Below, piece after piece: positions 9,499-31,478 of a stretch of DNA of 64,000 nt (the first letter of the stretch is position 1; every line of letters begins with the position of its first letter). The position numbers and the translations under genes were made by a program. Below the pieces are notes generated by a model, which saw only the letters and a list, made by a program, of their open reading frames with translations, did no database searches and was not told the DNA's origin. This stretch comes from Verrucomicrobiia bacterium (GTDB lineage Bacteria > Methylomirabilota > Methylomirabilia > Rokubacteriales > CSP1-6): positions 1,257 through 65,256 of the forward strand of contig DATJFY010000071.1 in NCBI GenBank assembly GCA_035495415.1, written 5' to 3'.

Positions 9499-9503
9499 CG
9501 GCC

Positions 9504-10457
9504 ATGACCCGCGTGGCCATCCTCGACGACTATCAAGACGTGGCGCTCGGGCTCGCCGACTGGAAGACTCTGCCCGCCGGCACCGAGGTGGTGGCGTTCC
9601 GCGAGCACCTGCACGAGCTGGACGCGGTGGCCAAGCGCCTCGCCGACTTCGACGTGGTGGTGGCGATGCGCGAGCGCACGGCGTTTCCGCGCCCGCTGCT
9701 GGAGAAGCTCCCCAAGCTGCGCCTGCTCGTCACCACCGGCATGCGCAACGCGTCCATCGACATGCAGGCCGCGGCGGACCGAGGCGTCACGGTGTGTGGG
9801 ACCTCGGGACTGCCGTATCCCACCGCGGAGCTCACCTGGGGCCTCGTCCTCGCGCTGTTCCGGCGCATCGCCGTCGAGGATCGGGCCACGCGCGAGGGAC
9901 AGTGGCAGACCACCCTGGGGCTCGGGCTCAACGGCAAGACGCTCGGGGTGATCGGGCTGGGCACGCTTGGCTCGCGAGTGGCGCGCTATGGGAAGGCGTT
10001 CGAGATGGAAGTGCTGGCGTGGAGCCAGAACCTGACCGCCGAGCGCGCGGCGGAGGCGGGCGCGACGCTGGTCGGCAAGGAGGAGCTGCTGCGACGTTCC
10101 GACGTGGTGAGCCTCCACCTCGTGCTGAGCGATCGCACGCGGGGCCTCCTCGGCGCCCGGGAGCTCGGTCTCATGAAGCGCACCGCGTATCTCGTCAACA
10201 CCTCCCGGGGGCCCATCGTGGACGAGGCGGCCCTCGTCCGGGCGCTCCAGGACGGCGCCATCGCCGGCGCCGGCCTCGACGTGTTCGAGCCGGAGCCGCT
10301 GCCGCTCGACCATCCCTTCCGCAAGCTGCCGAACACCGTGATCACCCCGCATCTGGGTTACGTGACCGAGGAGACCTACCGCGTGTTCTTCGGACACGCC
10401 CTCGAGGACGTGCAGGCCTTCCTGCGCGGGGCGCCGGTGCGGGTGCTCAAGCCGTAG
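9504..10457 (+). CDS. D-2-hydroxyacid dehydrogenase family protein
   Basis: ATG at 9504 inside ORF 9102..10457. GVIGLGTLGSRVARYG, NTSRGPIVDE, AGLDVFEPEP, TPHLGY. Confidence 0.9.
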   Translation: MTRVAILDDYQDVALGLADWKTLPAGTEVVAFREHLHELDAVAKRLADFDVVVAMRERTAFPRPLLEKLPKLRLLVTTGMRNASIDMQAAADRGVTVCGTSGLPYPTAELTWGLVLALFRRIAVEDRATREGQWQTTLGLGLNGKTLGVIGLGTLGSRVARYGKAFEMEVLAWSQNLTAERAAEAGATLVGKEELLRRSDVVSLHLVLSDRTRGLLGARELGLMKRTAYLVNTSRGPIVDEAALVRALQDGAIAGAGLDVFEPEPLPLDHPFRKLPNTVITPHLGYVTEETYRVFFGHALEDVQAFLRGAPVRVLKP

Positions 10458-15456: not shown

Positions 15457-16146
15457 ATGGACGGCGTCCACGATCTCGGCGGCATGCACGGATTCGGCCC
15501 GGTGGAGCGAGAGGCGAACGAGCCCCCGTTCCACGAGCCGTGGGAAGCCGCCGTCTACGCCATCATGCGCGCGAGCCTGAGCACCGGGCAGTACAATCTC
15601 GACGAATTTCGTCATGGCGTCGAGCGGATGGACCCCGCGCACTATCTCCGCTCCGGTTACTACGAGCACTGGCTGGACGGTATCGCCCGTGTCCTGGTCG
15701 AGAAGGGCGTTGTGGCCAGCGACGAGCTCGCCGCGCGCACTGCGTTCTTCGCGGATCATCCCGACGCCCCGGCGACCGCGGCGGTGCGGGCCATGCCCGC
15801 CACGCCGCCTCCGCGCATCCGGTGGCTCGCCCTCGACTCCGAGCGCCCGGCCACGCAGGCGCCGCGCTTCGCGGTGGGCGACGCCGTCATCACGCGCAAC
15901 ATCCATCCGACCGGACACACGCGGCTCCCACGATATGCGCGGGGCAAGCGAGGCATGATCCACCGCCAGCACGGCGCCCATGTCTTCCCCGACAGCAACG
16001 CGCACGGCGGGGGCGAGCAGCCGCAGACGCTCTACAGCGTCCGCTTCGACGCGCGGGAGCTGTGGGGGCCCGCGGCGGAGCCGAACCAGCACGTCTACAT
16101 CGATCTCTGGGAGCCGTATCTCGAGCCGGGAGCCGCCCGTGGGTAA
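15457..16146 (+). CDS. nthB: Nitrile hydratase beta subunit
   Basis: 229 aa. Hallmark N-terminus [16 protein letters not shown]. Followed directly by the alpha subunit. Confidence 0.9.
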
Positions 16147-16735
16147 GAACCATCCGAACGTCGACAAGTACGTGGTCTCGCGCGTGCGCGCGCTGGAATC
16201 CATCCTCCTCGAGAAAGGCATCCTGCCGCCCGACGCGGTGGACCGCGTGATCCAGCGCTACGAGGCCGACACCGGGCCGATGATCGGCGTGCGCGCGGTG
16301 GCCCGCGCGTGGATAGACCCGGCCTACAAGCAGCGGCTGCTCCAGGACCCGCGAGGCGCCCTCAAGGACTTCGGGCTCGACTACGAAGCGCTGCGCGTGG
16401 TCGAGAACACCCCGGCGGTGCACAACGTGGTCGTCTGCACCCTCTGCTCGTGCTACCCGTGGGCGGTAATGGGCCTTCCGCCCACCTGGTACAAGATGCC
16501 GGCCTATCGGTCCCGTACCGTGGCGGAGCCTCGCCGGGTACTGGCCGAGTTCGGGCTGAGCATTCCCGAGTCGCGCGAGATCCGCGTGTGGGACTCGAGC
16601 GCGGAGCTGCGCTACATGGTGCTGCCGGAGCGGCCCGCGGGCAGCCAGGCGATGGGCGAGGCGGAGCTGATCCCGCTCATCACGCGAGACGCCCTCATCG
16701 GCGTCGCCGACGTCCGGCTGTCCTCTCCGGCCTGA
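16139..16735 (+). CDS. nthA: Nitrile hydratase alpha subunit, cobalt type
   Basis: Metal-site motif [11 protein letters not shown] (Thr and Tyr variant is typical of Co-type). GTG at 16139 overlaps the beta stop (GTGGGTAA). Confidence 0.9.
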
Positions 16736-16746
16736 TCGCGCTCCCG

Positions 16747-17613
16747 ATGGGCTACGAGCGCCGCCGCAACCTCGTCATCCGTCCCGACGGCCGCCTCGTC
16801 AACGTCGCGCGGCCGCGCGGGCAGCTCTTCGTGTGCGCCAGTGGCTGCTGCTGCGGGCGCACCGAGGATGGCTTCGCCCCCGTCCCGACCGCGCTGTTCC
16901 ACGGCGAATGGGAGCGGCGGCGCCTTCGGAATCTCGTGCATCTCACCCTCGGCGGCTGCCTGGGGCCCTGCGCGCTCGCCAACGTCGCCCTGCTGCTGTT
17001 CGACGGCCAGGCGCAGTGGTTTCACTCGATGAATCGCGACGCGCTCGTCCTCGAGCTCTACGATCATGTGGAGCGGATGCTCGACGCGGACGGCGTGCTG
17101 GCCCCGCCGCCCGCCCTCGCCCCGTATCACTTCAGCGGCTCGGCGTGGCAGCCGCGGCCGGACGGGCTGCCCGTCGACGACCATCGCCCGCGGCGCCGGC
17201 CGTGCCCGTCCGAGCGTGGGAGCTCGAGCCTCGCCGAGCACACCTGCGCCGCCGGGCCCCCCGCGGACGAGTCCGGCGAGGGACGCGTCGAGCGGCTCAT
17301 CGCGGACATGAGCGGTGCGGCCGCGATGCCGCGCCGGAACGGTGAGCTGGTGTTTGCCGAGCCCTGGCAGGGGCGGGCATTCGGCATGGCGGTGGCGCTG
17401 TCCGAGAATGGCGCGTTCTCCTGGGAGGAGTTCCGTCAAGCGCTGATCGCGGAGATCGGCGTCGCCGAGCGCCGCGAGGGGCCTTTCGAGTATTACGAGG
17501 TGTGGCTCGCGACGTTCGAGCGGCTCCTTGCCACGAAGGGCCTCGTTTCCAGCGGCGAGCTCGACGAGACCGCATATCAGTTCGAGTTCGGCGAGCGCGA
17601 CGAGGTCTTCTGA
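16747..17613 (+). CDS. Nitrile hydratase accessory (activator) protein fused to an N-terminal Cys-rich thioredoxin-like-ferredoxin-type domain
   Basis: 288 aa. N-terminal part: GQLFVCASGCCCG...LTLGGCLGPCALANV. C-terminal part: ELVFAEPWQGRAFGMAVALSENGAFSWEEFRQALIAEI...YYEVWLATFERLL, resembling NHase beta-homolog accessory proteins. Confidence 0.75.
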   Translation: MGYERRRNLVIRPDGRLVNVARPRGQLFVCASGCCCGRTEDGFAPVPTALFHGEWERRRLRNLVHLTLGGCLGPCALANVALLLFDGQAQWFHSMNRDALVLELYDHVERMLDADGVLAPPPALAPYHFSGSAWQPRPDGLPVDDHRPRRRPCPSERGSSSLAEHTCAAGPPADESGEGRVERLIADMSGAAAMPRRNGELVFAEPWQGRAFGMAVALSENGAFSWEEFRQALIAEIGVAERREGPFEYYEVWLATFERLLATKGLVSSGELDETAYQFEFGERDEVF

Positions 17614-17733
17614 CGCGCGCCTCGCGGCCGTGTGGGCCGAGCAACAAAGCTGGAGGCCCAGGCAGCAGGGGCAGATTCTCCCCAACCTACGCTTGGCCTC
17701 GTGGACTCGCGCACTTGGCCGCGGGCGCCGCCG

Positions 17734-17749
17734 TGGCACCCCGCTTGCT
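17734..17749 (+). promoter_or_regulatory. Sigma-54 (-24/-12) promoter TGGCACCCCGCTTGCT
   Basis: Matches TGGCAC-N5-TTGCW with exact GG-to-GC spacing. Lies 49 nt upstream of a small ORF with a strong SD. Confidence 0.6.
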
Positions 17750-17797
17750 CCTCCTGGGGGCATGTGGCAGTCAACCGGAACCCCCAAGGAGGCCGTC

Positions 17798-17899
17798 ATG
17801 GCCAAGAGAATGAACGTCGCGAAGCTCTGCTGGACGGTGATGGCGCTGGGCGCGGTGATGTTCCTCACGCACTCGGCCATCCTCGCCTTCGCTCGCTAA
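17798..17899 (+). CDS. Small (33 aa) single-TM membrane protein
   Basis: MAKRMNVAKLCWTVMALGAVMFLTHSAILAFAR. SD AAGGAGG lies 7 nt upstream of the ATG. GC3-rich codons. Followed by an intrinsic terminator. Confidence 0.55.
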   Translation: MAKRMNVAKLCWTVMALGAVMFLTHSAILAFAR

Positions 17900-17943
17900 G
17901 ACCACTCCGGGTCGCGCCACCGCCGCGTGACCTGCGCTCGATA

Positions 17944-17989
17944 CCAGGCGCCGACCACTCGCCACAGAGTGGCGGCGCCTGGACGTTTT
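17944..17989 (+). terminator. Rho-independent terminator-like hairpin
   Basis: ~16-bp stem with one bulged A (CCAGGCGCCGACCACTC / GAGTGGCGGCGCCTGG), 6-nt loop, then ACGTTTTA. Confidence 0.6.
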
Positions 17990-18049
17990 ACGGCGCTGGA
18001 ACCCCGACAGCAACATTGGCAACTCCCTGGAATCGTTGGACGCCCTCTC

Positions 18050-18065
18050 TGGAACGCCACTTGCT
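18050..18065 (+). promoter_or_regulatory. Sigma-54 (-24/-12) promoter TGGAACGCCACTTGCT
   Basis: Correct GG-N10-GC spacing with TTGCT at -12. The motif ends 26 nt upstream of the kinase ATG at 18092. Confidence 0.5.
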
Positions 18066-18091
18066 GCCGATAGGTCGATAGGACAGCCTCC

Positions 18092-19552
18092 ATGCGTCTG
18101 GCGCCCAAGATCTTTCTCGTGTCGGTGCTGGCGATCCTGCTTCTCGGCGGGGTGTCGGCCTGGAGCATCGTCGCGGTGAGCCGGCTCGTCGAGGTGAACC
18201 GTGACATCGCCACCCGCGCGGTGCCGGCCATCGAGATCGCGAGCGGGCTGCCCGAGGCGTTCCGCCGCCTCGTGCGCCTGGAGGCCAAGTACCTCGTGCT
18301 GCGCGACCGCGCCTATGCCGACCTGTGGAACGAGCGGGCCACGCGTGTGGCAAGCGAGCTCGACCGGCTCGGGACCCTGCTCGTGACGCCCGAGGAGCTC
18401 ACGTGGCAGCAGAGCGCGGCGTCCGCCTTCGCGGCCTACCGCGAGCACGTGAGCCACGAGCGCGTGCTCGTGGGCCGGGGCGAGATCGAACGCGCCCAGC
18501 AGCTCTCGGAGCGCGCCGCCCGGGAGGCCGCCGAGCTGGCGGAGACGAGCGTGGTCAAGCTGTCCGCGGCGTCGAACGCGGGGCTCGGGCGCGCCCAGGC
18601 CGATGCCGCCGCCCTTGCCTCGCGCACCTGGACCACGGTGATCATCGCCTTCATCGCGAGCCTCGCGGTGGCGATCATCGCCACCGCCATCGTGGCGGTC
18701 CGCATGACGCGCTCGCTGCGCCAGCTCTCCACCGCCACGCGCCAGCTCGCCGAGGGCGCTGCGACGGGGCCGCTGCCCATCGACCGCGGCGACGAGATCG
18801 GCGACGTCGGTCGGGCGTTCAACCGCATGGCGGAGCGGCTGAAGGAGGTCGACGCGCTCAAAGAGGATTTCTTCTCGCAGATCTCGCACGATCTCCGTAA
18901 CCCGTTGACGGGCATGCGGGGAGCCGCCCAGCTCCTGATTCAGGGCCGGACCGGGGGCGCCCTCCCGCCCCGCCAGCTCCAGATGGTCCGGGTCATCGAC
19001 GACAGCGCCGGGCGCATGCTGGCGATGGTCAACCAGATCCTCGAGTTCACCCGACTCCGCGCGCACTTGATGCCGCTCGAGCGGAAGCCGGTGGACCTCG
19101 CCAAGCTCGTGGCGCGCGCGCTCGACGAGTTCCATCCGCAGGCGGAAGCGGCCGGGGTCGCGCTCTCCACCACCACGAGCGGCGCCGACTTCACCGTGTA
19201 CGGTGACGAGGCGGGCCTCATGCGCGTGGTCACGAACCTGGTGGGGAACTCGCTCAAGTTCACGCCGCGGGCGGGGTCGGTGACCGCCCAGGTGCGGGAC
19301 TGGGACGCAGAGGTCGAGCTGCGGCTGACCGACACCGGCGAGGGAATTCCGGCGGACGCCCTGCCGCGCATCTTCGACGCCTACCGACAGGCGCACGCGG
19401 GCCGCAAGGGCTCGGGGCTCGGCCTCGCGGTGGTGAAGGGCTTCGTCGAAGCACACGGCGGCCGCGTCGAGGTCGAGTCCGATCTGGGCAAGGGAACCAC
19501 GTTCGTGGTGACGCTGCCGCGCTCCCTGCCGCACCTGGAAGCCGCCGCGTGA
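18092..19552 (+). CDS. Sensor histidine kinase (TM, helical periplasmic domain, TM, HAMP, HisKA, HATPase)
   Basis: 486 aa. Two TM segments. HAMP (RQLSTATRQLAEG...GDEIGDVGRAFNRMAERL). H-box FFSQISHDLRNPL. G-boxes DTGEGIP and GSGLGLAVVKG. Confidence 0.9.
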   Translation: MRLAPKIFLVSVLAILLLGGVSAWSIVAVSRLVEVNRDIATRAVPAIEIASGLPEAFRRLVRLEAKYLVLRDRAYADLWNERATRVASELDRLGTLLVTPEELTWQQSAASAFAAYREHVSHERVLVGRGEIERAQQLSERAAREAAELAETSVVKLSAASNAGLGRAQADAAALASRTWTTVIIAFIASLAVAIIATAIVAVRMTRSLRQLSTATRQLAEGAATGPLPIDRGDEIGDVGRAFNRMAERLKEVDALKEDFFSQISHDLRNPLTGMRGAAQLLIQGRTGGALPPRQLQMVRVIDDSAGRMLAMVNQILEFTRLRAHLMPLERKPVDLAKLVARALDEFHPQAEAAGVALSTTTSGADFTVYGDEAGLMRVVTNLVGNSLKFTPRAGSVTAQVRDWDAEVELRLTDTGEGIPADALPRIFDAYRQAHAGRKGSGLGLAVVKGFVEAHGGRVEVESDLGKGTTFVVTLPRSLPHLEAAA

Positions 19553-20100
19553 GCCGCGCGCGTCTCGGGATCGCGCTTGCGCTGATCGTCACCGCCGGCG
19601 GGGGCTGCGCGAGCTGGGCCGCACGCCCGGCCTGGGTGCCCGTCGTTTCCTGGGAGCCCCGCCCGACTCCGACCGCCGCCCCGCCCCCCGCCGCGACCGC
19701 GAGCGTACCCGCGCCTTCACCCGTGCCCCGAGCCGAGCCGGCGCGGCTCGTCGAACGCGCCGGCGAGCTGGCCCATGACGGCCGGCCGGTCGCCGCGCGT
19801 GACCTCTACGAACGCGTGGTGCGCGAGTACCCCGGCGATCCCGCGCGCGCGGCCGCGCTCTACGGCCTCGGGCAGCTCCAGTGCGACCCGGCCAGCCCCT
19901 TCCGCGACTATCGCGCCGGCTACACCACCTTCGGCCGCCTCCTCGCCGAGCATCCGCGCAGCACCTTCGAGGCGGACGCCCGGCTGTGGCGCGCCACGCT
20001 GAGCGAGCTGCTCGCGCGCGACGAGGAGATGGCCCGCATGCGCAGCCAGCTCCAGCGCCTCAAGCGGATCGAGGTGGAGCTGGAGCGGTCGCCGCGCTGA
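19549..20100 (+). CDS. Lipoprotein with TPR/YbgF-like helical domain and C-terminal coiled coil
   Basis: GTG start overlaps the kinase stop (GTGA). Lipobox LIVTAGGGC. Pro-rich linker, then a helical repeat region. Confidence 0.7.
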   Translation: MSRARLGIALALIVTAGGGCASWAARPAWVPVVSWEPRPTPTAAPPPAATASVPAPSPVPRAEPARLVERAGELAHDGRPVAARDLYERVVREYPGDPARAAALYGLGQLQCDPASPFRDYRAGYTTFGRLLAEHPRSTFEADARLWRATLSELLARDEEMARMRSQLQRLKRIEVELERSPR

Positions 20101-20107
20101 TCGCCCG

Positions 20108-20764
20108 CTATCGGAGGGAGTGCGCGAAGGCCAGGTAGCGGAAGCTCACTTCCTCCGCGTAACGATCCCCCGGGCGGTTCTCGGTGGCCTTGTCGGGATT
20201 GCGGTTGTACGCGCGAAGGGCGGTCGCGTTGAACCCGTAGCGCGTGATCTGCCAGCGGAGGTAGGCGGTGCCCACCCGCACGTTGAACTTGGGATCGGCC
20301 AGTGAGCCCAGCGAGGCGTAGGTGCCGTTCTTGCCCATCTCGGGCGGGGTGTAGTCGAGGCCCAGCCGCTTCACCACGAGCTCGGCGGTGGAGGGCATCA
20401 GCTGCATCAGCCCGATCTCGCCCGACTTGCCGATCGCGCCGGGGTTGAACTGGCTCTCCTTGTCGGCGATGGCCAGGATGATGCGGAAATCGATGTCGGC
20501 GGCCTGGCTCACCTCCAGCAGCGTGTGCGGAAAGCCGGCGAACTCCCGGATGGTCGCCTGCGGGTTGCGCTCCACGATGAGCGCGGTGATCTTCTGCTCC
20601 ATCTCGGCCCGGCCCTGATCGGCGCGTTCTTGAGCGAGGCGGCCCTGCGTGAGGCCGCCCATATAGAAGAGCGGGACGGCGGCGACGAGAAGCACAACGC
20701 CCAGCGCCTGCAGCCACGTCCCGCGAGTCTCGACGAACCGACGAGCCAGCGCGATAGCCTGCAT
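20108..20764 (-). CDS. Membrane-anchored lytic transglycosylase (SLT domain)
   Basis: AIADKESQFNP ... GEIGLMQLMPSTA ... AYNRNP. AGGAGG lies 10 nt upstream of the ATG at 20764. The longer ORF start at 20800 lacks an SD. Confidence 0.85.
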   Translation of the reverse strand: MQAIALARRFVETRGTWLQALGVVLLVAAVPLFYMGGLTQGRLAQERADQGRAEMEQKITALIVERNPQATIREFAGFPHTLLEVSQAADIDFRIILAIADKESQFNPGAIGKSGEIGLMQLMPSTAELVVKRLGLDYTPPEMGKNGTYASLGSLADPKFNVRVGTAYLRWQITRYGFNATALRAYNRNPDKATENRPGDRYAEEVSFRYLAFAHSLR

Positions 20765-20839
20765 GATCACGAGTCCTCCTGCCGACTGGATTTTGTTCAT
20801 GGTGTGCGCGGTGTTACCGAGCTGTCAGTCCAGTAGAGT

Positions 20840-20855
20840 GGCAAGCGGTGTGCCA
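20840..20855 (-). promoter_or_regulatory. Sigma-54 (-24/-12) promoter TGGCACACCGCTTGCC, minus strand
   Basis: Perfect TGGCAC-N5-TTGC. Lies ~75 nt upstream of the SLT start. The site is near-palindromic, so the + strand reads TGGCAAGCGGTGTGCC at 20839..20854. Confidence 0.55.
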
Positions 20856-21159
20856 CGGAGAGGCCGCGGCTGGGAGGCTGGAAGAATCACGAGATGACAG
20901 TGCGCAACCATTTCGCGCTCGCGAGTTGTCAGGATCTCCGACAGCGTCACGCAGTGTCAGAGCCCACTAAAGGTTCTATGGCGCTCAGGCCACGAGGGCA
21001 AACCGGCGGCGACCGAGGCCTTCACATTCGGGGGGGACTCTGCTCGCGTCGGCGCGTCGGCATCCTCCGCGGAAACGATGCGCTCAATCAATTCACGCGC
21101 TTGACACTGACGGGGTGGGGCGGCCACTCGATCCGGCGGGGATTGAGCAGCCGGGTACA

Positions 21160-21951
21160 ATGAGTGCGATGGCGCTCGTGCTTGCGGCGATGCTGCTCGC
21201 CACGCTCCTCCTCGAAACCGCGCCCGCGGACGCCCAGGGTCGCGCGCCGGCGACGAGCCCCACCGGCCGTTCCCCGAACTTCTCGCGGCAGGCCGCCGAG
21301 GCGGACCGCATGGCCGCCGAGATCGTCCGCACGAGCCGTGAGTACATCGCGAGTCTCGAGCGGATGCGCGCCGCCTATCAGCAGGATGCCGCCGCGCTCG
21401 CCGAGATGGTCGAGGTGCGCCGCGATCTCTACCAGCGGCAGATCATCTCGAAGCGCGAGGTCGAGATCGCCGAGGAAGCCCTCGCCGCGGCGAATCGCAA
21501 GGTCGAAGAGGCCGACCGCGCGATCAGGGACGCGAGCACCATCCGCGAGTCGATACTCGGCGAGGCCGCCCTCCATGCCGAGATCGCGAAGACGGCGCTG
21601 CCCGCGGGCGGTTACCTCGCCACCGGCGTGTTCATCCGCTTCAACGGCACGGCGGCATTCACGCTCGCTGATCTCCCGAAGGTCGAGCGCTTCTTTGGTT
21701 ACCGCTTCGGTCGCGGCCTGCCCGTCAGCGCGCTGGGCCAGAGCGCGGTGCATGACCGCATCGGCTTCGACCATCGCAACGCGGTGGACGTGGCCCTGCA
21801 CCCCGACAGCGCCGAAGGGCAGGCGTTGATGAGCTATCTGCAGAGCCAGAACATTCCGTTCATCGCGGTGCGGCAGGCGGTGCCGGGCTCCTCCACCGGC
21901 GCCCACATCCACATCGGGCAGCCGTCGCGGAGATTCACGGCGCGTCACTGA
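21160..21951 (+). CDS. Secreted coiled-coil protein with C-terminal LAS-like (H-x4-D ... H-x-H) putative metallopeptidase motif
   Basis: Signal peptide MSAMALVLAAMLLATLLLETAPADAQG. Central heptad-rich segment. C-terminus has FDHRNAVDVAL and TGAHIHIG. Start could be 21169. Confidence 0.6.
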   Translation: MSAMALVLAAMLLATLLLETAPADAQGRAPATSPTGRSPNFSRQAAEADRMAAEIVRTSREYIASLERMRAAYQQDAAALAEMVEVRRDLYQRQIISKREVEIAEEALAAANRKVEEADRAIRDASTIRESILGEAALHAEIAKTALPAGGYLATGVFIRFNGTAAFTLADLPKVERFFGYRFGRGLPVSALGQSAVHDRIGFDHRNAVDVALHPDSAEGQALMSYLQSQNIPFIAVRQAVPGSSTGAHIHIGQPSRRFTARH

Positions 21952-22002
21952 CCGCTTTCCTGTATAGTTGCGGCGACGCGGGCCCAGTCGACCGGAGGAC
22001 AT

Positions 22003-23403
<1,401 letters not shown>

Positions 23404-23622
23404 CACTGCACTTCCCTCTGCCGATGCACTGCCAGCGGGGCAGGTGCCTCAAGTACGGTTCATCATTGGCGATTTTGCCTCCGAGCCCCCCTCTTCTCTC
23501 GCGACCTGCCCCGCCGATCGTGCAGGGAGGGCGGCGGACTCGCGACTCCGCGTCGAGAAAGGTGTCGGGAAAGGCGCACGGAAACGCGGAGTTTTTTCGC
23601 CTCGGGCCGACGGCCGCGCTCA

Positions 23623-23638
23623 TGGCGGCCGAATTGCT
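23623..23638 (+). promoter_or_regulatory. Sigma-54 (-24/-12) promoter TGGCGGCCGAATTGCT
   Basis: Correct GG-N10-GC spacing with TTGCT at -12. Lies ~80 nt upstream of the small ORF at 23717. Confidence 0.55.
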
Positions 23639-23716
23639 CTATTCTCCCCCTCGGGCAGTGGATCTCATTGGGAGGTCTCCTCGCCCGGCGACTCATTCCT
23701 CATGGGAGGGAACGCA

Positions 23717-23854
23717 ATGACGAAGCTCGTGGCCGTGCTGGCGATTCTCGCGTCGTTCCTGCTGGTGGCGCCGGTGATCGAGTCGGGTACGTCGGAGTCC
23801 AGCCAGATCTTCCTGGCCATCGGTAATGCGGACGGCGGCGCCGGAGGGGACTAG
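23717..23854 (+). CDS. Small (45 aa) protein with N-terminal hydrophobic segment (signal peptide or TM) and acidic/Gly tail
   Basis: MTKLVAVLAILASFLLVAPVIESGTSESSQIFLAIGNADGGAGGD. SD GGGAGGG lies 6 nt upstream. GC3-rich codons. Confidence 0.55.
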   Translation: MTKLVAVLAILASFLLVAPVIESGTSESSQIFLAIGNADGGAGGD

Positions 23855-25523
23855 TCTCACGCCACCTCGTCGGGGAGCGGCCGGCCATTCCCCTCGGGCC
23901 TCCGCACGAGCTTGGAGGGGCTTCGGCCCCTCTCTGCTCTTGATGACCCTCGTGCTGCTGGCCGGGCCCGCGGCGCCGCCCGCGCACGCCGAGGAGCCGA
24001 CCGAGAACGCGGCTCGTGAAGTCGGCGTTTACCGGAGACCGCTCGGGAACGATCCCGCCACGCTCGATCCGGTCCGGGTCAGCGATCTCTACGGGCGCTC
24101 CGTCACCGAGCAAATCTTCGACGGCCTGGTCCAGTTCGACCAGACGCTGACGATCACCCCCGCCCTCGCCCGCTTCTGGCGGGCCTCGCGGGACGGGCTC
24201 GTGTGGACGTTAACGCTACGCCAGGGCATCAAGTTTCACCATGGCCGCGAGCTCACGTCCGACGACGTCGTGTTCTCGCTCAGCAGGATTCTGGACCCGA
24301 AGTCTCAGAGCGGCGCGGCCGATCTCTTCTCGAGCATCGAGGGCGCCCAGGAATTTCGCGAGGGGCGAGCGCCCACGGTGAGCGGGCTCCAGGCGCCCGA
24401 CCGCTACACGGTGCGGGTGATATTGCGCGAGGCGTCCACGCCCTTCGTGTCCGTGCTGGCCCTCGGGCACGCCAAGATCGTCCCGCGCGACATGGTCGAG
24501 AAGCAGGGCGCCGCCTTCGGCCAGCATCCGGTGGGGACAGGTCCGTTCAAGTTCGTCCGGTGGGAGCGCCGCAAGGAGATCGTGCTGTCGGCGAATCGGG
24601 ACTACTTCGAGGGCCCGCCCCGGCTCGCCCGGGTCATCTATCGTATCTTTCCCGGCGAGCTCAGCGACGTGATGTGCCGGGAGTTCGACCGGGGCGAGCT
24701 GGACGAGAGCCCGGTTCCCCCCGTCTGCCGGAACAAGGTCAATGACGCGCGGTATCAGTACGTCCGCCGCGTCACGTTCAGCGTCCGCTTCTACGGTCTG
24801 CAGACCCGCATGAAGCCGATGAGCGATGTCCGGGTGCGCCGCGCCATCGCCCACGCCATCGATCGGAACGCGCTTCTCGACGACGTGTTCACCGGCCGCT
24901 TTCAGCCCGCGCCCGGAATCTTGCCGCTGGGACTGCCGGGCTACAATCCGAACTTGAAGCCGCTCGGCTACGCCCCCGCGCGGGCGCGCGAGCTCCTTCG
25001 CGAGGCGGGACATCCGGACGGGCGGGGACTGCCGACCATCGTGTTCTGGTCGGGGGCGAAGAGCGAGCGGCTCGAGCGCGAGCTGGACACGGTGTCGCGG
25101 CAGCTCGGCGCCGTCGGCATCCGGACCGAAACGCGCTACGAGACCGATTGGCCGACCTTCTCGCGAGAGGTGAACGAGGGCAAGCTGCCAATGTTCATCT
25201 ACGCGTGGTACGCCGACGTGCCCGACCCCGACAACTTCCTCTTCCGGCTCTTCTACTCGCGGAGCCCGCGCAACCTCACCGGGTACTCCAACGCGATGGT
25301 GGACGGCCTGCTGATCCAGGCGCGGGGCGAGAAGGAGCTGGCCCGACGGATGGATCTGTACCGGCGGGCCGAGCAGACGATCCTGAACGACGCACCCATC
25401 ATCCCCATCTGGCACTACCCGTTCGAACGGCTCTTCCAGGGCTACGTGCGCAGCGTGGAGGTGAACGGGCTCGGCGATCCCTATATCCCACTGAGGAAGA
25501 TATGGTTGGAGGAGCGGCGATGA
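23826..25523 (+). CDS. Family-5 (peptide/nickel-type) periplasmic substrate-binding protein, no adjacent permease
   Basis: SBP5 pattern (DPATLDPVRVSDLY, FDGLVQFD, GIKFHHGRELTSDDVVFS, GTGPFKFVRWE, ANRDYFEG, VRRAIAHAID). Signal-like LLLMTLVLLAGPAAPPAHA. Start is uncertain: 23826 overlaps the small ORF; the alternative is 23943. Confidence 0.85.
   Translation: MRTAAPEGTSLTPPRRGAAGHSPRASARAWRGFGPSLLLMTLVLLAGPAAPPAHAEEPTENAAREVGVYRRPLGNDPATLDPVRVSDLYGRSVTEQIFDGLVQFDQTLTITPALARFWRASRDGLVWTLTLRQGIKFHHGRELTSDDVVFSLSRILDPKSQSGAADLFSSIEGAQEFREGRAPTVSGLQAPDRYTVRVILREASTPFVSVLALGHAKIVPRDMVEKQGAAFGQHPVGTGPFKFVRWERRKEIVLSANRDYFEGPPRLARVIYRIFPGELSDVMCREFDRGELDESPVPPVCRNKVNDARYQYVRRVTFSVRFYGLQTRMKPMSDVRVRRAIAHAIDRNALLDDVFTGRFQPAPGILPLGLPGYNPNLKPLGYAPARARELLREAGHPDGRGLPTIVFWSGAKSERLERELDTVSRQLGAVGIRTETRYETDWPTFSREVNEGKLPMFIYAWYADVPDPDNFLFRLFYSRSPRNLTGYSNAMVDGLLIQARGEKELARRMDLYRRAEQTILNDAPIIPIWHYPFERLFQGYVRSVEVNGLGDPYIPLRKIWLEERR
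23915..23932 (+). other. GC-rich stem-loop GAGGGGC-TTCG-GCCCCTC (UUCG tetraloop)
   Basis: Perfect 7-bp stem, followed by TCTGCTCTT. Lies 60 nt after the small-ORF stop. It would be inside the SBP CDS if that gene starts at 23826. Confidence 0.35.
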
Positions 25524-27430
25524 GCGCGCGCGCCCTCTTCGACCGGGTGGGCCGCCGCTTCAACTCTCTCCACGCCCGGCTGCTCGCCGGCACCATCCTC
25601 ATCCTCCTCGTGGTGATGGCCGGGGTGATCGCGGTCGTGGAGTACCGGCAGCGCGTGGCCATCATCGGCGAAGTGCTCCGGCGGGGCGAGGTCATCGTGC
25701 GCGACCTCGCGGCGATCTCGTCCACCCCGCTGCTCCTCTACAACTTCACCGCCCTCGAGCAGAACGTGGATCGCGTGCGGGGGAACACCGACGTGGTCTA
25801 CGCGGTGGTGCTGGACGCCGACGGGAAGGTGGCGGCCCACAGCCGCCGCCCCGACCTGGTGGGGAGCGTGCTCGCCACGCCCCTCGATCGGGCCGCCGCC
25901 GCGAGCGAGACCCTGCTCGTCCAGGAGAGCCAGAGCCGAGGCGCCGCGGTGTACGACTTCGCGGTGCCGGTCCTGATCGGCGCCCAGCGCTGGGGCACCG
26001 CGCGCGTCGGGCTCTCCAAGAAGCGGATGGAGGCGCAGATCCGCCGGACCCGTATCGAGCTGGCGGGCCTGACCGTGGTGACGCTGCTCGTGAGCGGTCT
26101 CGCCGCCGCGCTCGTCGCCCGCGCCATCTCCCGGCCGGTGCGGGAGCTGGCGGCGGGCGCGGAGGCCATCGCGCGGGGTGACCTCGACCAGCGCATCGCG
26201 GCGACCGGGTTCGGGGAGATCGGCCAGCTCGCGGTGGTCTTCAATCACATGACGGCGCAGCTCCTGCAGCAGCGCCACGATCTCGAGGCCACCCACGAGT
26301 CGCTCCGGGAGCGCTTCGAAGAGGTCGCCGACCTCAAGAGCTACACCGACAGCATCCTGGCCTCGATCACGAGCGGCATCGTGACCCTCGACCTCGATGG
26401 CCGGGTCGCCACCGTGAACCCCGCCGCCGAGCTCCTCACCGGCCTCTTCGCCGGCGAGATCGTGGGCCGGTACTGCACCGAGGTCTTCGCCCACACCCCC
26501 GGGGTCTCGGAGATCCTCATGGAGGCGCTCGCGAGCCGGGCGGGACTGGGCCACGTGTCCCTGAGCCTGCGGCGCCGGAACGGTACCGCGGTACCGGTGG
26601 AGATGAGCACGGCCCCGCTGCGTGGGCTGGAGGGGAAGGACCTCGGCGTGGTCGGGGTGTTCCGCGACGTGAGCCATGTTCGCGAGCTGGAGGGCCAGCT
26701 GCGCCGCTCCGACCGGCTCGCCGCCCTCGGCACCCTCGCCGCCGGGCTCGCCCACGAGATCAAGAATCCCCTCGCGTCACTGCGCACCTTCACGCGGATC
26801 ATCCCCCGCAAGTTCGAGGACGCCCGCTTCCGGGAGACGTTCATGCGGGTCGTGCCCCACGAGCTCGAGCGGATCAACGGCATCGTGGAGCAGCTTCTCG
26901 AGCTGGCCCGGCCGATCCGACTCCGGCCGGCTCCCCTCACCGTGCCGGGCGTGCTGGACCGGGTCCTCGAGCTGTACGCCAACGAGCTCGAGGCCAAGGG
27001 GATCGTGGTGACGCGGGAGTACGCGCGCGAGGTGCCGTCGATCACCGCCGATCCCGAGCGTCTCTACGAGGCGTTCGTCAACCTGGTCAGCAACGCCATC
27101 GCCGCCATGGCGCCGGGGGGTCGGCTCACCGTGCGCACCGCCTGGCACCGCCCGGGAGAGCCCGTGGGGCGCGGCACGGCGGGGCGCCGTGTGCGCGTCG
27201 AGATCGAGGACACGGGCAGCGGCATCTCAGCCTCGGAGGCCGACAAAGTGTTCGATCCCTTCTTCACCACCAAAGCGGAGGGCACGGGCCTCGGCCTCGC
27301 CCTCACGCACAAGATCATCGAGGATCACGGCGGAAGCATCGGCTTCCGGAGCGCGCCGGGCGTGGGCACGGTGTTCACCGTGCTCCTGCCCTTGGCCTCC
27401 GAGCGCGCCGCCGGAGAGCGCGATGTCTAG
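25520..27430 (+). CDS. Sensor histidine kinase, NtrB/AtoS-like (TM, periplasmic domain, TM, HAMP, PAS, HisKA, HATPase)
   Basis: 636 aa. ATG overlaps the SBP stop (ATGA). H-box LAAGLAHEIKNPLASL. PAS (ILASITSGIVTLDLDGRVATVNPAAELLTG). DTGSGI, GTGLGLALTHKII. Confidence 0.9.
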   Translation: MSARALFDRVGRRFNSLHARLLAGTILILLVVMAGVIAVVEYRQRVAIIGEVLRRGEVIVRDLAAISSTPLLLYNFTALEQNVDRVRGNTDVVYAVVLDADGKVAAHSRRPDLVGSVLATPLDRAAAASETLLVQESQSRGAAVYDFAVPVLIGAQRWGTARVGLSKKRMEAQIRRTRIELAGLTVVTLLVSGLAAALVARAISRPVRELAAGAEAIARGDLDQRIAATGFGEIGQLAVVFNHMTAQLLQQRHDLEATHESLRERFEEVADLKSYTDSILASITSGIVTLDLDGRVATVNPAAELLTGLFAGEIVGRYCTEVFAHTPGVSEILMEALASRAGLGHVSLSLRRRNGTAVPVEMSTAPLRGLEGKDLGVVGVFRDVSHVRELEGQLRRSDRLAALGTLAAGLAHEIKNPLASLRTFTRIIPRKFEDARFRETFMRVVPHELERINGIVEQLLELARPIRLRPAPLTVPGVLDRVLELYANELEAKGIVVTREYAREVPSITADPERLYEAFVNLVSNAIAAMAPGGRLTVRTAWHRPGEPVGRGTAGRRVRVEIEDTGSGISASEADKVFDPFFTTKAEGTGLGLALTHKIIEDHGGSIGFRSAPGVGTVFTVLLPLASERAAGERDV

Positions 27431-28580
27431 GCCGATCATCGACGATCCGCGCATCGAGCGGCACATCGTCCGGTCGGAGGTCATCAGCAAGGTCGCGGGT
27501 GGGGTGGTTCACAACTTCAACAATATCCTGTCCGTGCTGCTCGGGCGCGTGGAGCTCCTGCTCGGGCAGGTTGACAAGGGCGCGGTGGACGCCGGCCAGC
27601 TCCGCAAGGGACTCGTCTCCATCCAGAAGGGGGCCCTCGACGCGGCCGAGCTGCTGAAGCGCCTGCGCGACATCGCGCGGCCCCCGCAAGACGTCGCGTG
27701 CTCCGTGTTCGACTTGAACGCCGCGGTGGCCGACGCGGTGGAGTTCATCCAGCCCCACCTCGTCACCGTTGCCCAGGGCCAGGGGATCTCGGTGCGCGTG
27801 ACCTCGCGCCTCTCCACCGTCGCGGTTCTCATCTCCGGCCAATCGAGCGCGCTCCGCGAGGTGCTGGTCAACCTGATCCTCAACGCCATCGAGGCGATGC
27901 CCGAGGGGGGTGAGGTCAGCGTGGAGACCGCGCGCGAGGGGAGCCAGGCGGTCCTCCGCGTCACCGACACCGGCGTCGGCATACCGGAGGAGGTGCGCTC
28001 GCGCGTCTTCACGCCGTTCTTCACCACCAAGCCGGCGGGAAACACCGGGCTCGGGCTCTCGTCGGCGAAGGATCTCGTGACGAGCCACGGCGGCACCATC
28101 GCGGTGGCGAGCGAGCTCGGCCGAGGCACCACCTTCACCATCGTCCTGCCCTGCGCGGAGAGCCGTCAGCCGCGGGCAGTGGCGCCCGCGGCTCTGCGGC
28201 TGCGCGCGGGCCTGCGGGTCCTCGTGGTGGACGACCAGCGCGAGCTGCGCGACATCCTGCGCGAGTTCCTGAGCGAGCTCGGCTGCCAGCCGACCCTCGT
28301 GGGCAGCGGGAAGGCCGGCCTCGACGCCGTGGAGAGGGAGATCTTCGACGTGGTCCTCACCGACCTGCTCCTGCCCGGGGCGAGCGGGTGGGAGATCGCG
28401 CGCGCGGCCAAGCGGAGGTCGCCCGGCTGTCGTGTGGTGCTCATGTCGGGCAAGGCCATCCCCGACGGGCTGCGCGTGGAGGCCCTGGTGGACGCCACGC
28501 TCATGAAGCCGGTCGACCTCGGCCACCTTCGCACGGTCATCGCCGAAGTGCTCGACGAGCCCTCGCCCTCGCTGAGTTGA
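27423..28580 (+). CDS. Soluble hybrid histidine kinase (HisKA, HATPase, REC) without a recognisable sensor domain
   Basis: 385 aa. Overlaps the upstream kinase by 8 nt. H-box VVHNFNNILSVLLG. DTGVGIP, NTGLGLSSAKD. REC: VLVVDDQ, DVVLTDLLLPGASG, LMKP. Confidence 0.9.
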   Translation: MSRPIIDDPRIERHIVRSEVISKVAGGVVHNFNNILSVLLGRVELLLGQVDKGAVDAGQLRKGLVSIQKGALDAAELLKRLRDIARPPQDVACSVFDLNAAVADAVEFIQPHLVTVAQGQGISVRVTSRLSTVAVLISGQSSALREVLVNLILNAIEAMPEGGEVSVETAREGSQAVLRVTDTGVGIPEEVRSRVFTPFFTTKPAGNTGLGLSSAKDLVTSHGGTIAVASELGRGTTFTIVLPCAESRQPRAVAPAALRLRAGLRVLVVDDQRELRDILREFLSELGCQPTLVGSGKAGLDAVEREIFDVVLTDLLLPGASGWEIARAAKRRSPGCRVVLMSGKAIPDGLRVEALVDATLMKPVDLGHLRTVIAEVLDEPSPSLS

Positions 28581-28642
28581 GTTCCGCGCCGCGAGGCCAT
28601 ACACTGGCCCGCGATGCGCGACCACGCCGAACCCGCGCCCCG

Positions 28643-29404
28643 ATGATCCTCGTGTCGTGGAACGTCAACGGGCTCCGCGCCGCCTGGAAGAAGGGCTTCG
28701 TGGATTTCCTGGAGTCCCAGAAGGCGGACGTGGTCTGCGTGCAGGAGACGAAGGTGCAGGCCGAGCAGCTCACCGAGGAGATGCGCGCGGTGGGCGGCTA
28801 CCGCTCGTACTGGAGCTTCGCCGAGAAGAAAGGCTACAGCGGCGTGGCAACCTACCTCCACGAGGAGCCCGTCCACGTCGGGACCACCTTCAGCTCGCCC
28901 GCCCTCGATGTCGAGGGCCGCGTCGTGCACCTCGAGCTGCGGGACTTCCACCTCCTGAACGTGTACTTCCCCAACGGCGGGATGGGGCCAGAGCGGCTCG
29001 CCCACAAGCTCACGTTCTACGACGAGTTCCTCGTGCTGACCGAGGGGCTCCGCAAGGGGGGCAAGGGCGTCATCGTCTGCGGGGACGTCAATACCGCCCA
29101 CACCGAGATCGATCTCGCCCGTCCCAAGGAGAACGAGAAGACCTCGGGCTTCATGCCGGAGGAACGGGCCTGGGTGGCCAAGTTCATCGCGACGGGTTAC
29201 TGCGACACCTTCCGACTCTTCAGTCAGGAGTCGGGGCACTACACCTGGTGGGACATGAAAACGGGCGCGCGCGCCCGGAACGTCGGCTGGCGCATCGACT
29301 ACTTCTTCGTCTCGGAGGAGCTTCGCGGGCGGGTCAAGGCCGCCGGCATCCTGCCGGCGGTCCAGGGCTCGGACCACTGCCCCATCACGCTCGTCCTGGA
29401 CTGA
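28643..29404 (+). CDS. xthA: Exodeoxyribonuclease III
   Basis: 253 aa. ILVSWNVNGLRA, VVCVQETK, NVYFPNGG, CGDVNTAH, WRIDYFF, SDHCPI. Confidence 0.9.
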   Translation: MILVSWNVNGLRAAWKKGFVDFLESQKADVVCVQETKVQAEQLTEEMRAVGGYRSYWSFAEKKGYSGVATYLHEEPVHVGTTFSSPALDVEGRVVHLELRDFHLLNVYFPNGGMGPERLAHKLTFYDEFLVLTEGLRKGGKGVIVCGDVNTAHTEIDLARPKENEKTSGFMPEERAWVAKFIATGYCDTFRLFSQESGHYTWWDMKTGARARNVGWRIDYFFVSEELRGRVKAAGILPAVQGSDHCPITLVLD

Positions 29405-29425
29405 GCGTGAGGGGCCGGGTCGCCG

Positions 29426-30040
29426 CTAGCGGACGGCGGCGGCGCGCTCGAGACGGTCCAGGGTGGCCCCTTCGAGGCCACCCGTCTTCAGCTTCCGCAC
29501 GAGGTCCTCGTAGGACCCCTTCGAGATGATGCGGTTGAACTGGCTCCGGTAGTTGCCCACGAAGCTCACACCCTCGATGAGCACGTCGTAGACCGCCCAC
29601 CGCGAGTTGACGAGATGGAGGCGATAGGCGAGCGCCATCTCGGTGCCGCGCCCCATGATCTTGGAGCGCACGGTGGCGTACTCGCCGTCCACCGTCTCGC
29701 CGAGATAGATGATCCGCTCGCCCGTGTAGTTCTCGAGCTTGGCGATGTACGAGCGCTCGAGGAGATCGCGGAAGAGCGAGACGAACTCCTCGCGCTCGCC
29801 CGGCGTGCGCTCACTCCAGTGACGGGCCAGGGTCCGGCGGGCCATCTCCGGAAAGTCGAAGAGACGGCCGGCCACCCGCCGGATCTCACTGCGCCGCTTC
29901 TCGGCGCCATCGGGATGACCCGCGTCGTAGTCCTGCACGACCTGCACCACCTGCTCGATACCCGACTGCACCACCTCGGTCGGACTCGGCGTGGCCATCG
30001 GCGCCATCGCCAGGAGCATCAACGCCAGGGCCTTCTGCAT
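29426..30040 (-). CDS. MlaC/Ttg2D-family periplasmic lipid-binding protein
   Basis: ATG at 30040. Signal peptide MQKALALMLLAMAPMA. FDFPEMARRTLARHW, REEFVSLFRDLLERSYI, WAVYDVLIEGVSFVGNYRSQF. Confidence 0.8.
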   Translation of the reverse strand: MQKALALMLLAMAPMATPSPTEVVQSGIEQVVQVVQDYDAGHPDGAEKRRSEIRRVAGRLFDFPEMARRTLARHWSERTPGEREEFVSLFRDLLERSYIAKLENYTGERIIYLGETVDGEYATVRSKIMGRGTEMALAYRLHLVNSRWAVYDVLIEGVSFVGNYRSQFNRIISKGSYEDLVRKLKTGGLEGATLDRLERAAAVR

Positions 30041-30269
30041 GACCACCCTCCCCGGGTTCTGTGTCGGCGGCCCTGCGAGCGGCGCCGCCGCCGCACCTAT
30101 GGGAGAGCACGAGGGATGCCAGGCCGCCGGTTGATCCAAGATATTGGAAACACGCGGGTTTTCGGGCCTGTCCCCGCGGCGTCCCGTCATCCCCGGGACA
30201 GCTCCCGTCAGACCGCGGACAGCCCGGCGGACCGCGGTTGCCGCCCCCCTCGCGTGCTATTGTGCGGGG

Positions 30270-31478
30270 ATGCCCCAGACCGCGGACGTCACCATCGTCG
30301 GCGCCGGCATCGTCGGCCTCGCCACTGCCGTGAACCTGACCGAGCGGCATCCGCGGGCGCGTGTGGTCGTGCTCGACAAAGAGCCGCAGATCGCCACCCA
30401 TCAGACCGGTCACAACTCGGGCGTGATCCACTCCGGGATTTACTACAAGCCCGGCTCGTTCAAGGCGCGCCTCTGCGTCGAGGGCGCGCGGCTCATGACC
30501 CAGTTCTGCGACGCCCATGGGATCGGCTATGAGCGCTGCGGCAAGGTCATCGTGGCCACGAGCGACGAGGAGATCCCGCGCCTCGATGCGCTCCATGAGC
30601 GCGGCACCGCCAACGGCGTCCCCGGGCTCAAGCTGGTCTCCGGCGACGAGATCCGCGAGTGGGAGCCACATGTCCGCGCGGTGCGGGGCATGCTCTCGCC
30701 TGCGACCGGCATCGTCGACTACACCGAGGTCGCCAAGCGCATGGCCGCCCTCATCGGCCAGCGGGGCGCCGAGGTGAAGACGGGGGCGGGCGTCCGGGCC
30801 ATCCGCCGGGATGGCGGCACGCTCGTCCTCGAGACCGAGGCCGGCCCGGTGGCCACGAGCTATCTCATCAACTGTGCGGGACTTCATTCCGACCGTGTGG
30901 CCGCGCTCATGGGCATCCGCCCGGAGGTGCAGATCATTCCCTTTCGCGGCGAGTACTACATGCTCCGGCCGGAGCGCCGCTCGCTCGTGCGCGGGCTCAT
31001 CTACCCCGTCCCGGACCCGCGGTTCCCGTTCCTCGGGGTCCACTTCACCCGCACCATCCACGGCGACGTCGAGGCCGGCCCGAATGCGGTGCTCGCGCTC
31101 GCGCGCGAGGGCTACACGATGCGCACGGTGCGGATCGGGGAAGCCCTGCGCACGTTCACGTATCGCGGTTTCTGGCACATGGGCCGGCGCTACTGGAAGA
31201 TGGGCGCCTACGAGGTCTACCGCTCGATGAGCAAGGCCGCCTTCGTGGCCTCCCTCCAGCGGCTCGTGCCCGCGATCCAGGCCACCGACATCGCGCCCGG
31301 CGGCGCGGGGGTGCGCGCGCAGGCGGTGAGCCCGGACGGCTCGCTGGTGGACGACTTCAAGATCAGTCAGACCGAGGGCGCCATCCACGTGTTGAATGCG
31401 CCCTCGCCGGCGGCCACTGCGTCGCTCGCCATCGGCCGGCACATCGCGGGTCTCGCCGCGGAGTCGTTCCGCCTCTAG
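30270..31478 (+). CDS. lhgO: L-2-hydroxyglutarate oxidase (FAD-dependent)
   Basis: DVTIVGAGIVGLATA, HQTGHNSGVIHSGIYYKPGS, INCAGLHSD, HVLNAPSPAATAS. Confidence 0.85.
   Translation: MPQTADVTIVGAGIVGLATAVNLTERHPRARVVVLDKEPQIATHQTGHNSGVIHSGIYYKPGSFKARLCVEGARLMTQFCDAHGIGYERCGKVIVATSDEEIPRLDALHERGTANGVPGLKLVSGDEIREWEPHVRAVRGMLSPATGIVDYTEVAKRMAALIGQRGAEVKTGAGVRAIRRDGGTLVLETEAGPVATSYLINCAGLHSDRVAALMGIRPEVQIIPFRGEYYMLRPERRSLVRGLIYPVPDPRFPFLGVHFTRTIHGDVEAGPNAVLALAREGYTMRTVRIGEALRTFTYRGFWHMGRRYWKMGAYEVYRSMSKAAFVASLQRLVPAIQATDIAPGGAGVRAQAVSPDGSLVDDFKISQTEGAIHVLNAPSPAATASLAIGRHIAGLAAESFRL

Follow-up and report, generated by a model that had tools for sequence, protein, structure and literature searches.

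A conserved cluster of predicted sigma-54-dependent genes around an NtrC-type activator in a member of the Rokubacteriales

We analysed a 64-kb stretch of DNA from a bacterium of the Rokubacteriales (phylum Methylomirabilota; assembly GCA_035495415.1, contig DATJFY010000071.1, positions 1,257 to 65,256), hereafter called the window. It contains a single gene for an NtrC-type enhancer-binding protein (EBP), surrounded by genes for sensor kinases, small peptides and proteins of the cell envelope. The gene map (Table 1) combines open reading frame (ORF) calling guided by the G+C content of third codon positions (GC3), independent gene calls, and Pfam and NCBIfam matches. Upstream of the EBP gene are found the small peptide gene pep33, the kinase gene HK1 together with a gene for a lipoprotein with tetratricopeptide repeats (TPR), an SLT-type lytic transglycosylase gene in the opposite orientation, and the gene of a 263-aa secreted protein. 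Downstream follow the small peptide gene pep45, the gene of a solute-binding protein (SBP) and the kinase genes HK2 and HK3, with the lipid-transport genes MlaC and MlaA further away. Pfam and the independent gene calls confirm the gene content given in an earlier, sequence-only reading of this DNA. The same reading regarded the locus as an island. Base composition is even across the window (70% G+C), and the locus is a conserved chromosomal cluster rather than an acquired element. The EBP protein is found identical in one contig of the metagenome-assembled genome (MAG) GCA_046723635.1, and its close relatives are annotated as Methylomirabilota or Candidatus Rokubacteria. Related loci were retrieved via the 263-aa protein, via the EBP, and via exact look-ups of pep45 and MlaA homologues. 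They show three types of synteny, that of the window being shared by L004, L006, L007, L164-L167 and L178.

The block common to all three synteny types comprises the EBP gene, a sigma-54 promoter, pep45, the SBP_bac_5 gene and HK2, and nothing else. HK1, the lipoprotein, SLT, the 263-aa protein, HK3 and MlaC join this core only in the lineage of the window. The EBP has the features of the NtrC family, with Pfam matches to Response_reg (4.8e-30), Sigma54_activat (2.8e-71) and HTH_8 (1.6e-10), the sequence ERGAFTGA and the Walker motif GESGTGKE. It remains below the NCBIfam cut-offs of AtoC (477 against 714 bits), NtrC (450 against 559), ZraR (405 against 760) and GlrR (360 against 763). A search of PDB sequences with its helix-turn-helix (HTH) domain returned generic Fis-type domains only, from which a DNA specificity is not assignable. 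A search for a second EBP in the window and in the related loci was negative. HK2 has AtoS and ZraS as best family matches and is also below every equivalog cut-off. The SBP is nearest to peptide, HbpA/AibA, OppA, DppA and MppA binding proteins, and no ABC transporter (Opp/Dpp permease) genes are found near it. In all loci the SBP_bac_5 gene is followed by that of a kinase with an sCache_3_2 domain, which is the gene layout of SBP-dependent sensor kinases. SBP_bac_5 proteins are established co-sensors (PMC8050422). The first gene of this SBP-HK2 operon, behind the sigma-54 promoter, is pep45 in every locus.

Promoter candidates were scored by their match to TGGCAC-N5-TTGCW (maximum 11), with GG and GC exactly 10 nt apart. 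Four motifs with exact sigma-54 spacing had been proposed, before pep33, HK1, SLT and pep45, and all four are present. Three of them are the exact TGGC-N7-TTGC matches of the 64 kb (17734 on the plus strand, 20841-20855 on the minus strand and 23623 on the plus strand), whereas the site at 18050 has one mismatch to this pattern. As had been claimed, the four sites are intergenic; they are correctly oriented, with a start codon 27-94 nt downstream. The statement that no such motif exists in other intergenic regions did not hold, as further conserved sites were found before MlaC and MlaA. The raw number of TGGC-N7-TTGC matches is not significant (3 against 1.78 expected; 27 of 100 shuffles reach 3), and GG-N10-GC alone is not enriched in the window and is uninformative. 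At high score, the density of sites at the locus is indeed unusual: the window has 4 sites of at least 10/11 against 0.74 expected, 3 of the 4 being within the locus, and 1 site of 11/11 against 0.04 expected. A simple scan of positions 17600-31000 detected no sigma-70 consensus promoter.

The sequence-only reading had named the lack of motif conservation in syntenic loci as a ground for its own refutation. The motifs are present in these loci and their -24/-12 elements are invariant. Each motif of the locus recurs at the same position in the loci with window synteny, where GG and TTGC are fixed and the spacers drift, and 25 of the 28 matches of at least 9/11 in five relatives correspond to conserved intergenic positions. 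The pep33 promoter (P_pep33) is kept with a variable spacer in L006, L007, L164, L167 and L178, GG and TTGCT of P_HK1 are invariant in 6 loci, and P_MlaC is kept in eight. P_MlaA is kept as TGGCAC-N5-TTGCT in L183 and L185-L187 and is degenerate in L184. For P_pep45, each of the 22 distinct orthologous sequences has TGGC-N7-TTGC, located 79-96 nt upstream of the start of pep45. Extra sigma-54 promoters were detected in relatives before an inserted pseudopilin operon and before an operon of FecR-like, 263-aa and EBP genes. The conservation, position and orientation of the -24/-12 sites support the view that they behave as genuine sigma-54 promoters. Those of MlaC and MlaA together suggest a sigma-54 input into Mla lipid transport.

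Activator binding sites would be expected about 70-200 bp upstream of sigma-54 promoters, and two classes of candidate upstream activating sequences (UAS) accompany those of pep45, SLT and MlaC. The first (UAS-A) consists of palindromes of the TGCAC type, located about 100 and about 183 nt upstream of the -24 element of P_pep45 and nowhere else in the loci. Their half-site and spacing vary together with the recognition helix of the EBP: TGCACCA-N4 is found with RNTLLRK, TGCACTG-N4 with RNTLKVK, and TGCACAG-N3 with RNSLKVK. Because of this parallel, and of their position directly after the EBP gene, the TGCAC palindromes are probably targets of the local EBP. The second class (UAS-B) has the pattern TGTCSG-N5/6-TGACR, i.e. 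TGTC-N8/9-GAC[A/G], and occurs 3 times in the window against 0.35 expected. It lies 70-100 bp upstream of the -24 element and, within the window, is common to the SLT and MlaC promoters only. In relatives, UAS-B also precedes the pseudopilin promoter (L178) and sits between the divergent sigma-54 promoters of SLT and of the EBP operon (L007, L164, L165 and L167). It was not found near the EBP in synteny types B and C. With two element classes and a single EBP in the window, at least two activator specificities seem to act on the cluster. Since the element upstream of SLT and MlaC is a distinct one, these genes are most likely under the control of a second EBP encoded outside the window.

Both small peptides that had been reported from the sequence are real conserved genes under purifying selection. 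The pep45 family has at least 255 cluster representatives, and its named members all come from Rokubacteria/Methylomirabilota-type MAGs, except for one MAG labelled Actinomycetota. Its consensus is M[TA][KR]xxAxxxxLASFLLVAPVIESGTSxSTQxFxAIG[TN]ADGGxGG(D), with an invariant PVIESG segment. The synonymous codons of the conserved residues vary freely, which indicates that selection acts on the protein. The pep45 peptides form a new small-protein family that always accompanies the sensor module. The peptide has an n-region (MTK), a 14-residue hydrophobic core and an invariant APVIES directly followed by GTS. This layout fits both a Sec signal peptide cut after IES and a membrane anchor with an invariant hydrophobic end. 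Neither pep45 nor pep33 has a match in Pfam or NCBIfam or homology to known small kinase regulators (MgrB-like). Like MgrB in layout, pep45 is short, hydrophobic and associated with a kinase, whose operon it heads. The 5' untranslated region (UTR) of pep45 (23647-23716) has a conserved hairpin, and in the lineage of the window the Shine-Dalgarno (SD) site carries a repeat of the string (T)CATGGGAGG. This arrangement recalls the pairs of GGA sites of CsrA-like regulation, or else an anti-SD switch. The pep33 gene is conserved in the lineage of the window only, with a strong SD sequence, and its family is a narrow one, for which a search of a representative library gave about 4 representatives at 50% identity. 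The hairpin that follows pep33 is found in 6 loci, with energies of -27 to -37 kcal/mol and compensatory changes in the stem. It is a probable terminator or stabiliser, and was not flagged in a simple terminator scan.

On balance, we favour the view that the locus is a conserved chromosomal cluster of sigma-54-dependent units, made of an ancient core and lineage-specific additions, that would function as follows. The orphan SBP, of the peptide family, would bind a periplasmic signal and pass it on to the Cache domain of HK2, and this AtoS/ZraS-like kinase would phosphorylate the adjacent EBP. The EBP would then bind the two NtrC-like palindromes upstream of P_pep45, leading to the sigma-54 open complex. 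Induction of pep45-SBP-HK2(-HK3) from this promoter would constitute a positive autoregulatory loop, in which the 45-aa peptide, exported or membrane-inserted, could modulate the SBP/HK2 sensor. The sigma-54 promoters of the window lineage would drive pep33, HK1 with the TPR lipoprotein, SLT, MlaC and MlaA, with SLT and MlaC activated by the second EBP. The motifs and their conservation, the gene content, the two classes of upstream element and the purifying selection on the peptides are observations; the binder of each element, the phosphotransfer partners and the role of the peptide are inferred. A link between HK1 and the EBP is not evident, because the H-box of HK1 resembles those of kinases with OmpR-type partners; its best NCBIfam matches are of the WalK, CreC and PhoR types. 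The lipoprotein encoded next to HK1 has weak matches, under the cut-off, to YbgF/BamD-type TPR proteins.

Several observations weigh against this proposal. P_pep45 scores just 9/11 in the window. A search of the window and of 2.28 Mb of related loci gave no rpoN gene; its presence in the genome is expected from the GAFTGA-bearing EBP. The parallel between palindrome and recognition helix extends across three lineages only. The pep33 and HK1 promoters have neither class of UAS, and no shared upstream element was recognised before them. In some relatives the EBP operon has a sigma-54 promoter that shares its intergenic region with a TGTC element. As the EBP is the only one in the window, this means that it could bind TGTC while a global NtrC binds TGCAC. 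The function proposed for pep45 is conjectural. It would be a bold and rather unlikely extension that pep45 is a precursor exported via Sec, and that its acidic mature form, of about 23 residues, is the cognate ligand or anti-ligand of the orphan SBP in a self-induced peptide-signalling loop. If true, the signal would pass from the peptide to the SBP, the Cache kinase, the EBP and sigma-54, resulting in more peptide. Such peptide autoinducer or autocrine circuits are known mainly from Gram-positives, and one would be unusual in a diderm uncultured phylum.

The sequence-only reading had interpreted the locus as one envelope circuit centred on the EBP. The clustering and the envelope-related nature of the downstream genes stand, while a regulon with a single activator is probably not the case. 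In its full form, this alternative has the three kinases feeding into the local EBP, which would in turn activate every sigma-54 promoter of the locus and, by extension, that of MlaC. We consider this unlikely, although the EBP is the sole one in 64 kb and the genes remain clustered across the lineage of the window. The combination of HK1, lipoprotein and EBP recalls QseE/QseG/QseF, the GlrR (QseF) site resembles the SLT/MlaC element, and the EBP operon of relatives has its own sigma-54 promoter beside the TGTC element. However, GlrR is not the best-matching family of the EBP (it scores below AtoC and far from its own cut-off), and the H-box of HK1 is of the PhoR/WalK type. In the two other synteny types the EBP is accompanied by the pep45 operon alone. 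The single-activator regulon is thus only partly supported, since the element at SLT and MlaC is unrelated to that at pep45 and the pep33 and HK1 promoters carry neither, even if the local EBP may have a dual specificity for both classes.

Even less likely, in our opinion, is an exchange of the two assignments, with the local EBP binding the TGTC elements (of SLT, of MlaC and, in relatives, of its own operon) and a global NtrC-like nitrogen regulator driving pep45-SBP-HK2 via TGCAC. The half-site and the N3 or N4 spacing of the palindromes track the helix of the local EBP, which is unexpected for a global regulator, and TGTC is missing near the EBP in synteny types B and C. On the other hand, the palindromes match the canonical NtrC consensus, that of L169 being exactly TGCACCA-N4-TGGTGCA, a peptide-family SBP would suit nitrogen scavenging, and in relatives TGTC elements lie between the divergent SLT and EBP-operon promoters. 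Finally, the raw count and the lack of GG-N10-GC enrichment might suggest that GG-N10-GC arises here by chance, the genome having 70% G+C, and that the genes use other promoters. This is highly improbable and effectively refuted by the invariance of -24/-12 amid drifting spacers across many orthologous loci. The enrichment at high score, the constant distance to start codons and the activator-type palindromes at the expected distance also speak against it.

The sequence-only reading did not recognise a described system, and we agree: no described system matches the locus, and the EBP is below every named equivalog cut-off. The locus combines features of AioXSR, ZraPSR and QseEGF and is a fairly conventional kind of regulatory circuit. 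AioR, from the arsenite-sensing AioX-AioS-AioR system of Agrobacterium/Rhizobium, activates a sigma-54 promoter. As in the locus described here, AioXSR has a signalling-only SBP beside a Cache-like kinase and an NtrC-type EBP (PMC8050422). However, AioX belongs to the phosphonate-binding family and not to SBP_bac_5, the target is arsenite oxidase instead of the sensor operon itself, and AioXSR has neither a leading small peptide nor neighbouring sigma-54 envelope genes. ZraS and ZraR, from the envelope-stress system ZraPSR of E. coli/Salmonella, are among the best matches of HK2 and the EBP. ZraR drives the sigma-54 promoters of its own operon and of a small accessory protein of the periplasm, which acts as a repressor of the system (PMC4987338). 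In contrast with pep45, to which it is unrelated, ZraP is a zinc chaperone of about 140 aa. ZraPSR has no SBP, and the ZraR and ZraS scores obtained here are below the equivalog cut-offs (405 versus 760 and 234 versus 479, respectively).

QseE(GlrK)-QseG-QseF(GlrR) comprises, like our locus, a kinase, a lipoprotein and a sigma-54 EBP, and controls envelope homeostasis genes (PMC6075780). The GlrR site, TGTC-N10-GACA (PMC4987338), resembles the SLT/MlaC element. Unlike in QseEGF, HK1-lipoprotein and the EBP are here in separate operons, the element has an N8/N9 spacing, the GlrR score is 360 versus a cut-off of 763, and the genes concerned are SLT and MlaC rather than glmY and rpoE. Family-5 SBPs also signal via membrane receptors, whose periplasmic domain is of the Cache type or another, in the pairs CBP-ChiS, DppA-Tap and AibA-TlpB (PMC8050422). 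These SBPs mostly serve transporters too, and their signalling leads to chemotaxis or to a DNA-binding kinase instead of sigma-54. In MgrB-PhoQ and SafA-PhoQ, a short single-pass peptide that is induced by or linked to a two-component system modulates the kinase. No sequence similarity to MgrB or SafA was found for pep45, which may moreover be cleaved and soluble.

Methylomirabilota/Rokubacteria are abundant in soil and, to our knowledge, have no cultured isolates. Our search for literature on sigma-54 or rpoN in Rokubacteria and Methylomirabilis returned nothing relevant. For this group, the locus yields phylogenetically footprinted sigma-54 promoters, two candidate enhancer motifs and a compact sensor module. 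Sigma-54 has been presented as a controller of the bacterial exterior, with promoters before peptidoglycan, lipid and lipoprotein genes (Francke et al. 2011, PMC3162934). In a term search of that survey, which does not include this phylum, 'transglycosylase' and 'VacJ' have no matches, so that neither SLT nor Mla-type (VacJ) genes appear to be reported there with sigma-54 promoters. Our data would extend the sigma-54 control of the cell exterior to a lytic transglycosylase and to Mla lipid-transport genes, in a new phylum.

The 263-aa protein encoded just upstream of the EBP had been described as LAS-like. LAS metallopeptidases (M15/M23/hedgehog type) have the zinc motifs H-x(3-6)-D and H-x-H, to which H198-x5-D204 and H249-x-H251 of this protein correspond; both are kept without change across 18 diverse homologues. 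There is no significant fold or family match: the protein has no Pfam or NCBIfam peptidase match, and a profile search of PDB sequences returned nothing. The C-terminal domain was modelled confidently (pLDDT 89), and its fold search gave no PDB match below an E value of 0.2. Weak BFVD (viral) matches only were obtained (E 0.2-2, TM score 0.36-0.45), some of which are hedgehog/M15A/endolysin entries. With the full-length model, the coiled-coil hairpin dominates the fold search and the matches are membrane-fusion proteins (MFP) only. The LAS label, based on the His and Asp motifs, is no more than plausible. The family occurs widely, and without the EBP, in MAGs of Acidobacteriota, Binatia and delta type, which makes it a poor synteny anchor. 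It has hundreds of homologues and no Pfam annotation, and occurs as nearby duplicate copies in several MAGs of these groups (L040, L043, L056, L069, L077, L078 and L080).

Table 1. Genes, predicted promoters and candidate regulatory elements of the locus and its surroundings, in window coordinates. Promoter scores are given out of 11; TM, transmembrane; REC, receiver.
Feature	Position	Strand	Description
Nitrile hydratase operon	end at 17613		upstream neighbour of pep33
P_pep33	17734-17749	+	TGGCACCCCGCTTGCT; 11/11
pep33	17798-17899	+	33-aa single-TM peptide MAKRMNVAKLCWTVMALGAVMFLTHSAILAFAR; SD AAGGAGG
Hairpin 3' of pep33	17944-17983	+	GC-rich; -36 kcal/mol
P_HK1	18050-18065	+	TGGAACGCCACTTGCT; 10/11
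HK1	18092-19552	+	TM-HAMP-HisKA-HATPase kinase; H-box SHDLRNPL
TPR lipoprotein	19549-20100	+	start overlaps HK1 stop
SLT	20108-20764	-	lytic transglycosylase, membrane-anchored, 218 aa (Pfam/NCBIfam, gene calls)
P_SLT	20840-20855	-	TGGCACACCGCTTGCC; 10/11
UAS-B	20927-20943		palindrome TGTCGGAGATCCTGACA; about 80 bp upstream of P_SLT -24 element
263-aa protein	21160-21951	+	secreted; signal peptide, MFP-like coiled-coil hairpin, C-terminal His/Asp-rich domain
EBP	22003-23403	+	NtrC-type; REC, AAA+ with GAFTGA, Fis-type HTH
UAS-A1	23425-23442		NtrC-like palindrome TGCACTGCCAGCGGGGCA; predicted
UAS-A2	23507-23524		NtrC-like palindrome TGCCCCGCCGATCGTGCA; predicted; most lineages have a palindrome about 100 nt before the -24 element
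P_pep45	23623-23638	+	TGGCGGCCGAATTGCT; 9/11
Hairpin in pep45 5' UTR	23662-23676	+	consensus CCUC-AUGGG-GAGG; 5 pairs, 3 with compensatory changes
pep45	23717-23854	+	45-aa peptide
SBP	23943-25523	+	SBP_bac_5 periplasmic binding protein, orphan
HK2	25520-27430	+	sCache_3_2-HAMP-PAS-HisKA-HATPase kinase; H-box HEIKNPL; AtoS/ZraS-like
HK3	27423-28580	+	soluble hybrid kinase HisKA-HATPase-REC
ExoIII-like gene	next after HK3		
MlaC	29426-30040	-	MlaC-family periplasmic lipid-binding protein
P_MlaC	30106-30121	-	TGGCATCCCTCGTGCT; fifth site; 9/11
UAS-B, two tandem sites	30185-30221		TGTCCCGGGGATGACG and TGTCCGCGGTCTGACG, 21 bp apart; before P_MlaC
MlaA	40690-41769	-	MlaA (VacJ) lipoprotein gene
P_MlaA	41827-41842	-	GGGCACCCCCGTTGCT; sixth site, 58 nt upstream of MlaA gene; 10/11

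The nitrile hydratase operon (15457-17613), with genes for the beta subunit, the alpha subunit and an NHase_beta_N-like accessory protein, lies directly upstream of the locus, and this position is kept in relatives. Two insertions distinguish the relatives from the window. A four-gene insert lies between the lipoprotein and SLT genes in L167 (3359-6307) and L178 (2948-5883); the window is without it at the corresponding point (20100-20108). The insert encodes two N_methyl pseudopilins, a 397-aa protein and a TPR/CarboxypepD_reg protein, and a separate sigma-54-like promoter precedes it. The original role of the small SLT may have been in an apparatus resembling a pilus or a type II secretion system (T2SS). 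The second insertion encodes a 430-aa FecR-domain protein, upstream of the 263-aa protein and the EBP, in L164 (6164-7459), L165 (2171-3463) and L007 (about 8700-10000). It is preceded by TGGCAG-N5-TTGCT on the plus strand, a promoter that is missing or degenerate in the window. Just upstream of P_MlaA, a sigma-70-like sequence, TTGCCA-N18-GAGTAT, is conserved.

Far from the EBP locus, the motif GGCTTGGGCGG is repeated at 3532, 3562 and 3601 (region 3500-3620). The 2-kb bin around these repeats has 75% G+C and a strong AT skew (-0.27), and the region is probably a repetitive coding segment rich in Gly, Pro and Ala. At the other end of the window, the region 52926-56180 has about 74% G+C and long overlapping ORFs on both strands, among which is a minus-strand ORF of 1084 aa with a G+C content at first codon positions (GC1) of 0.81.

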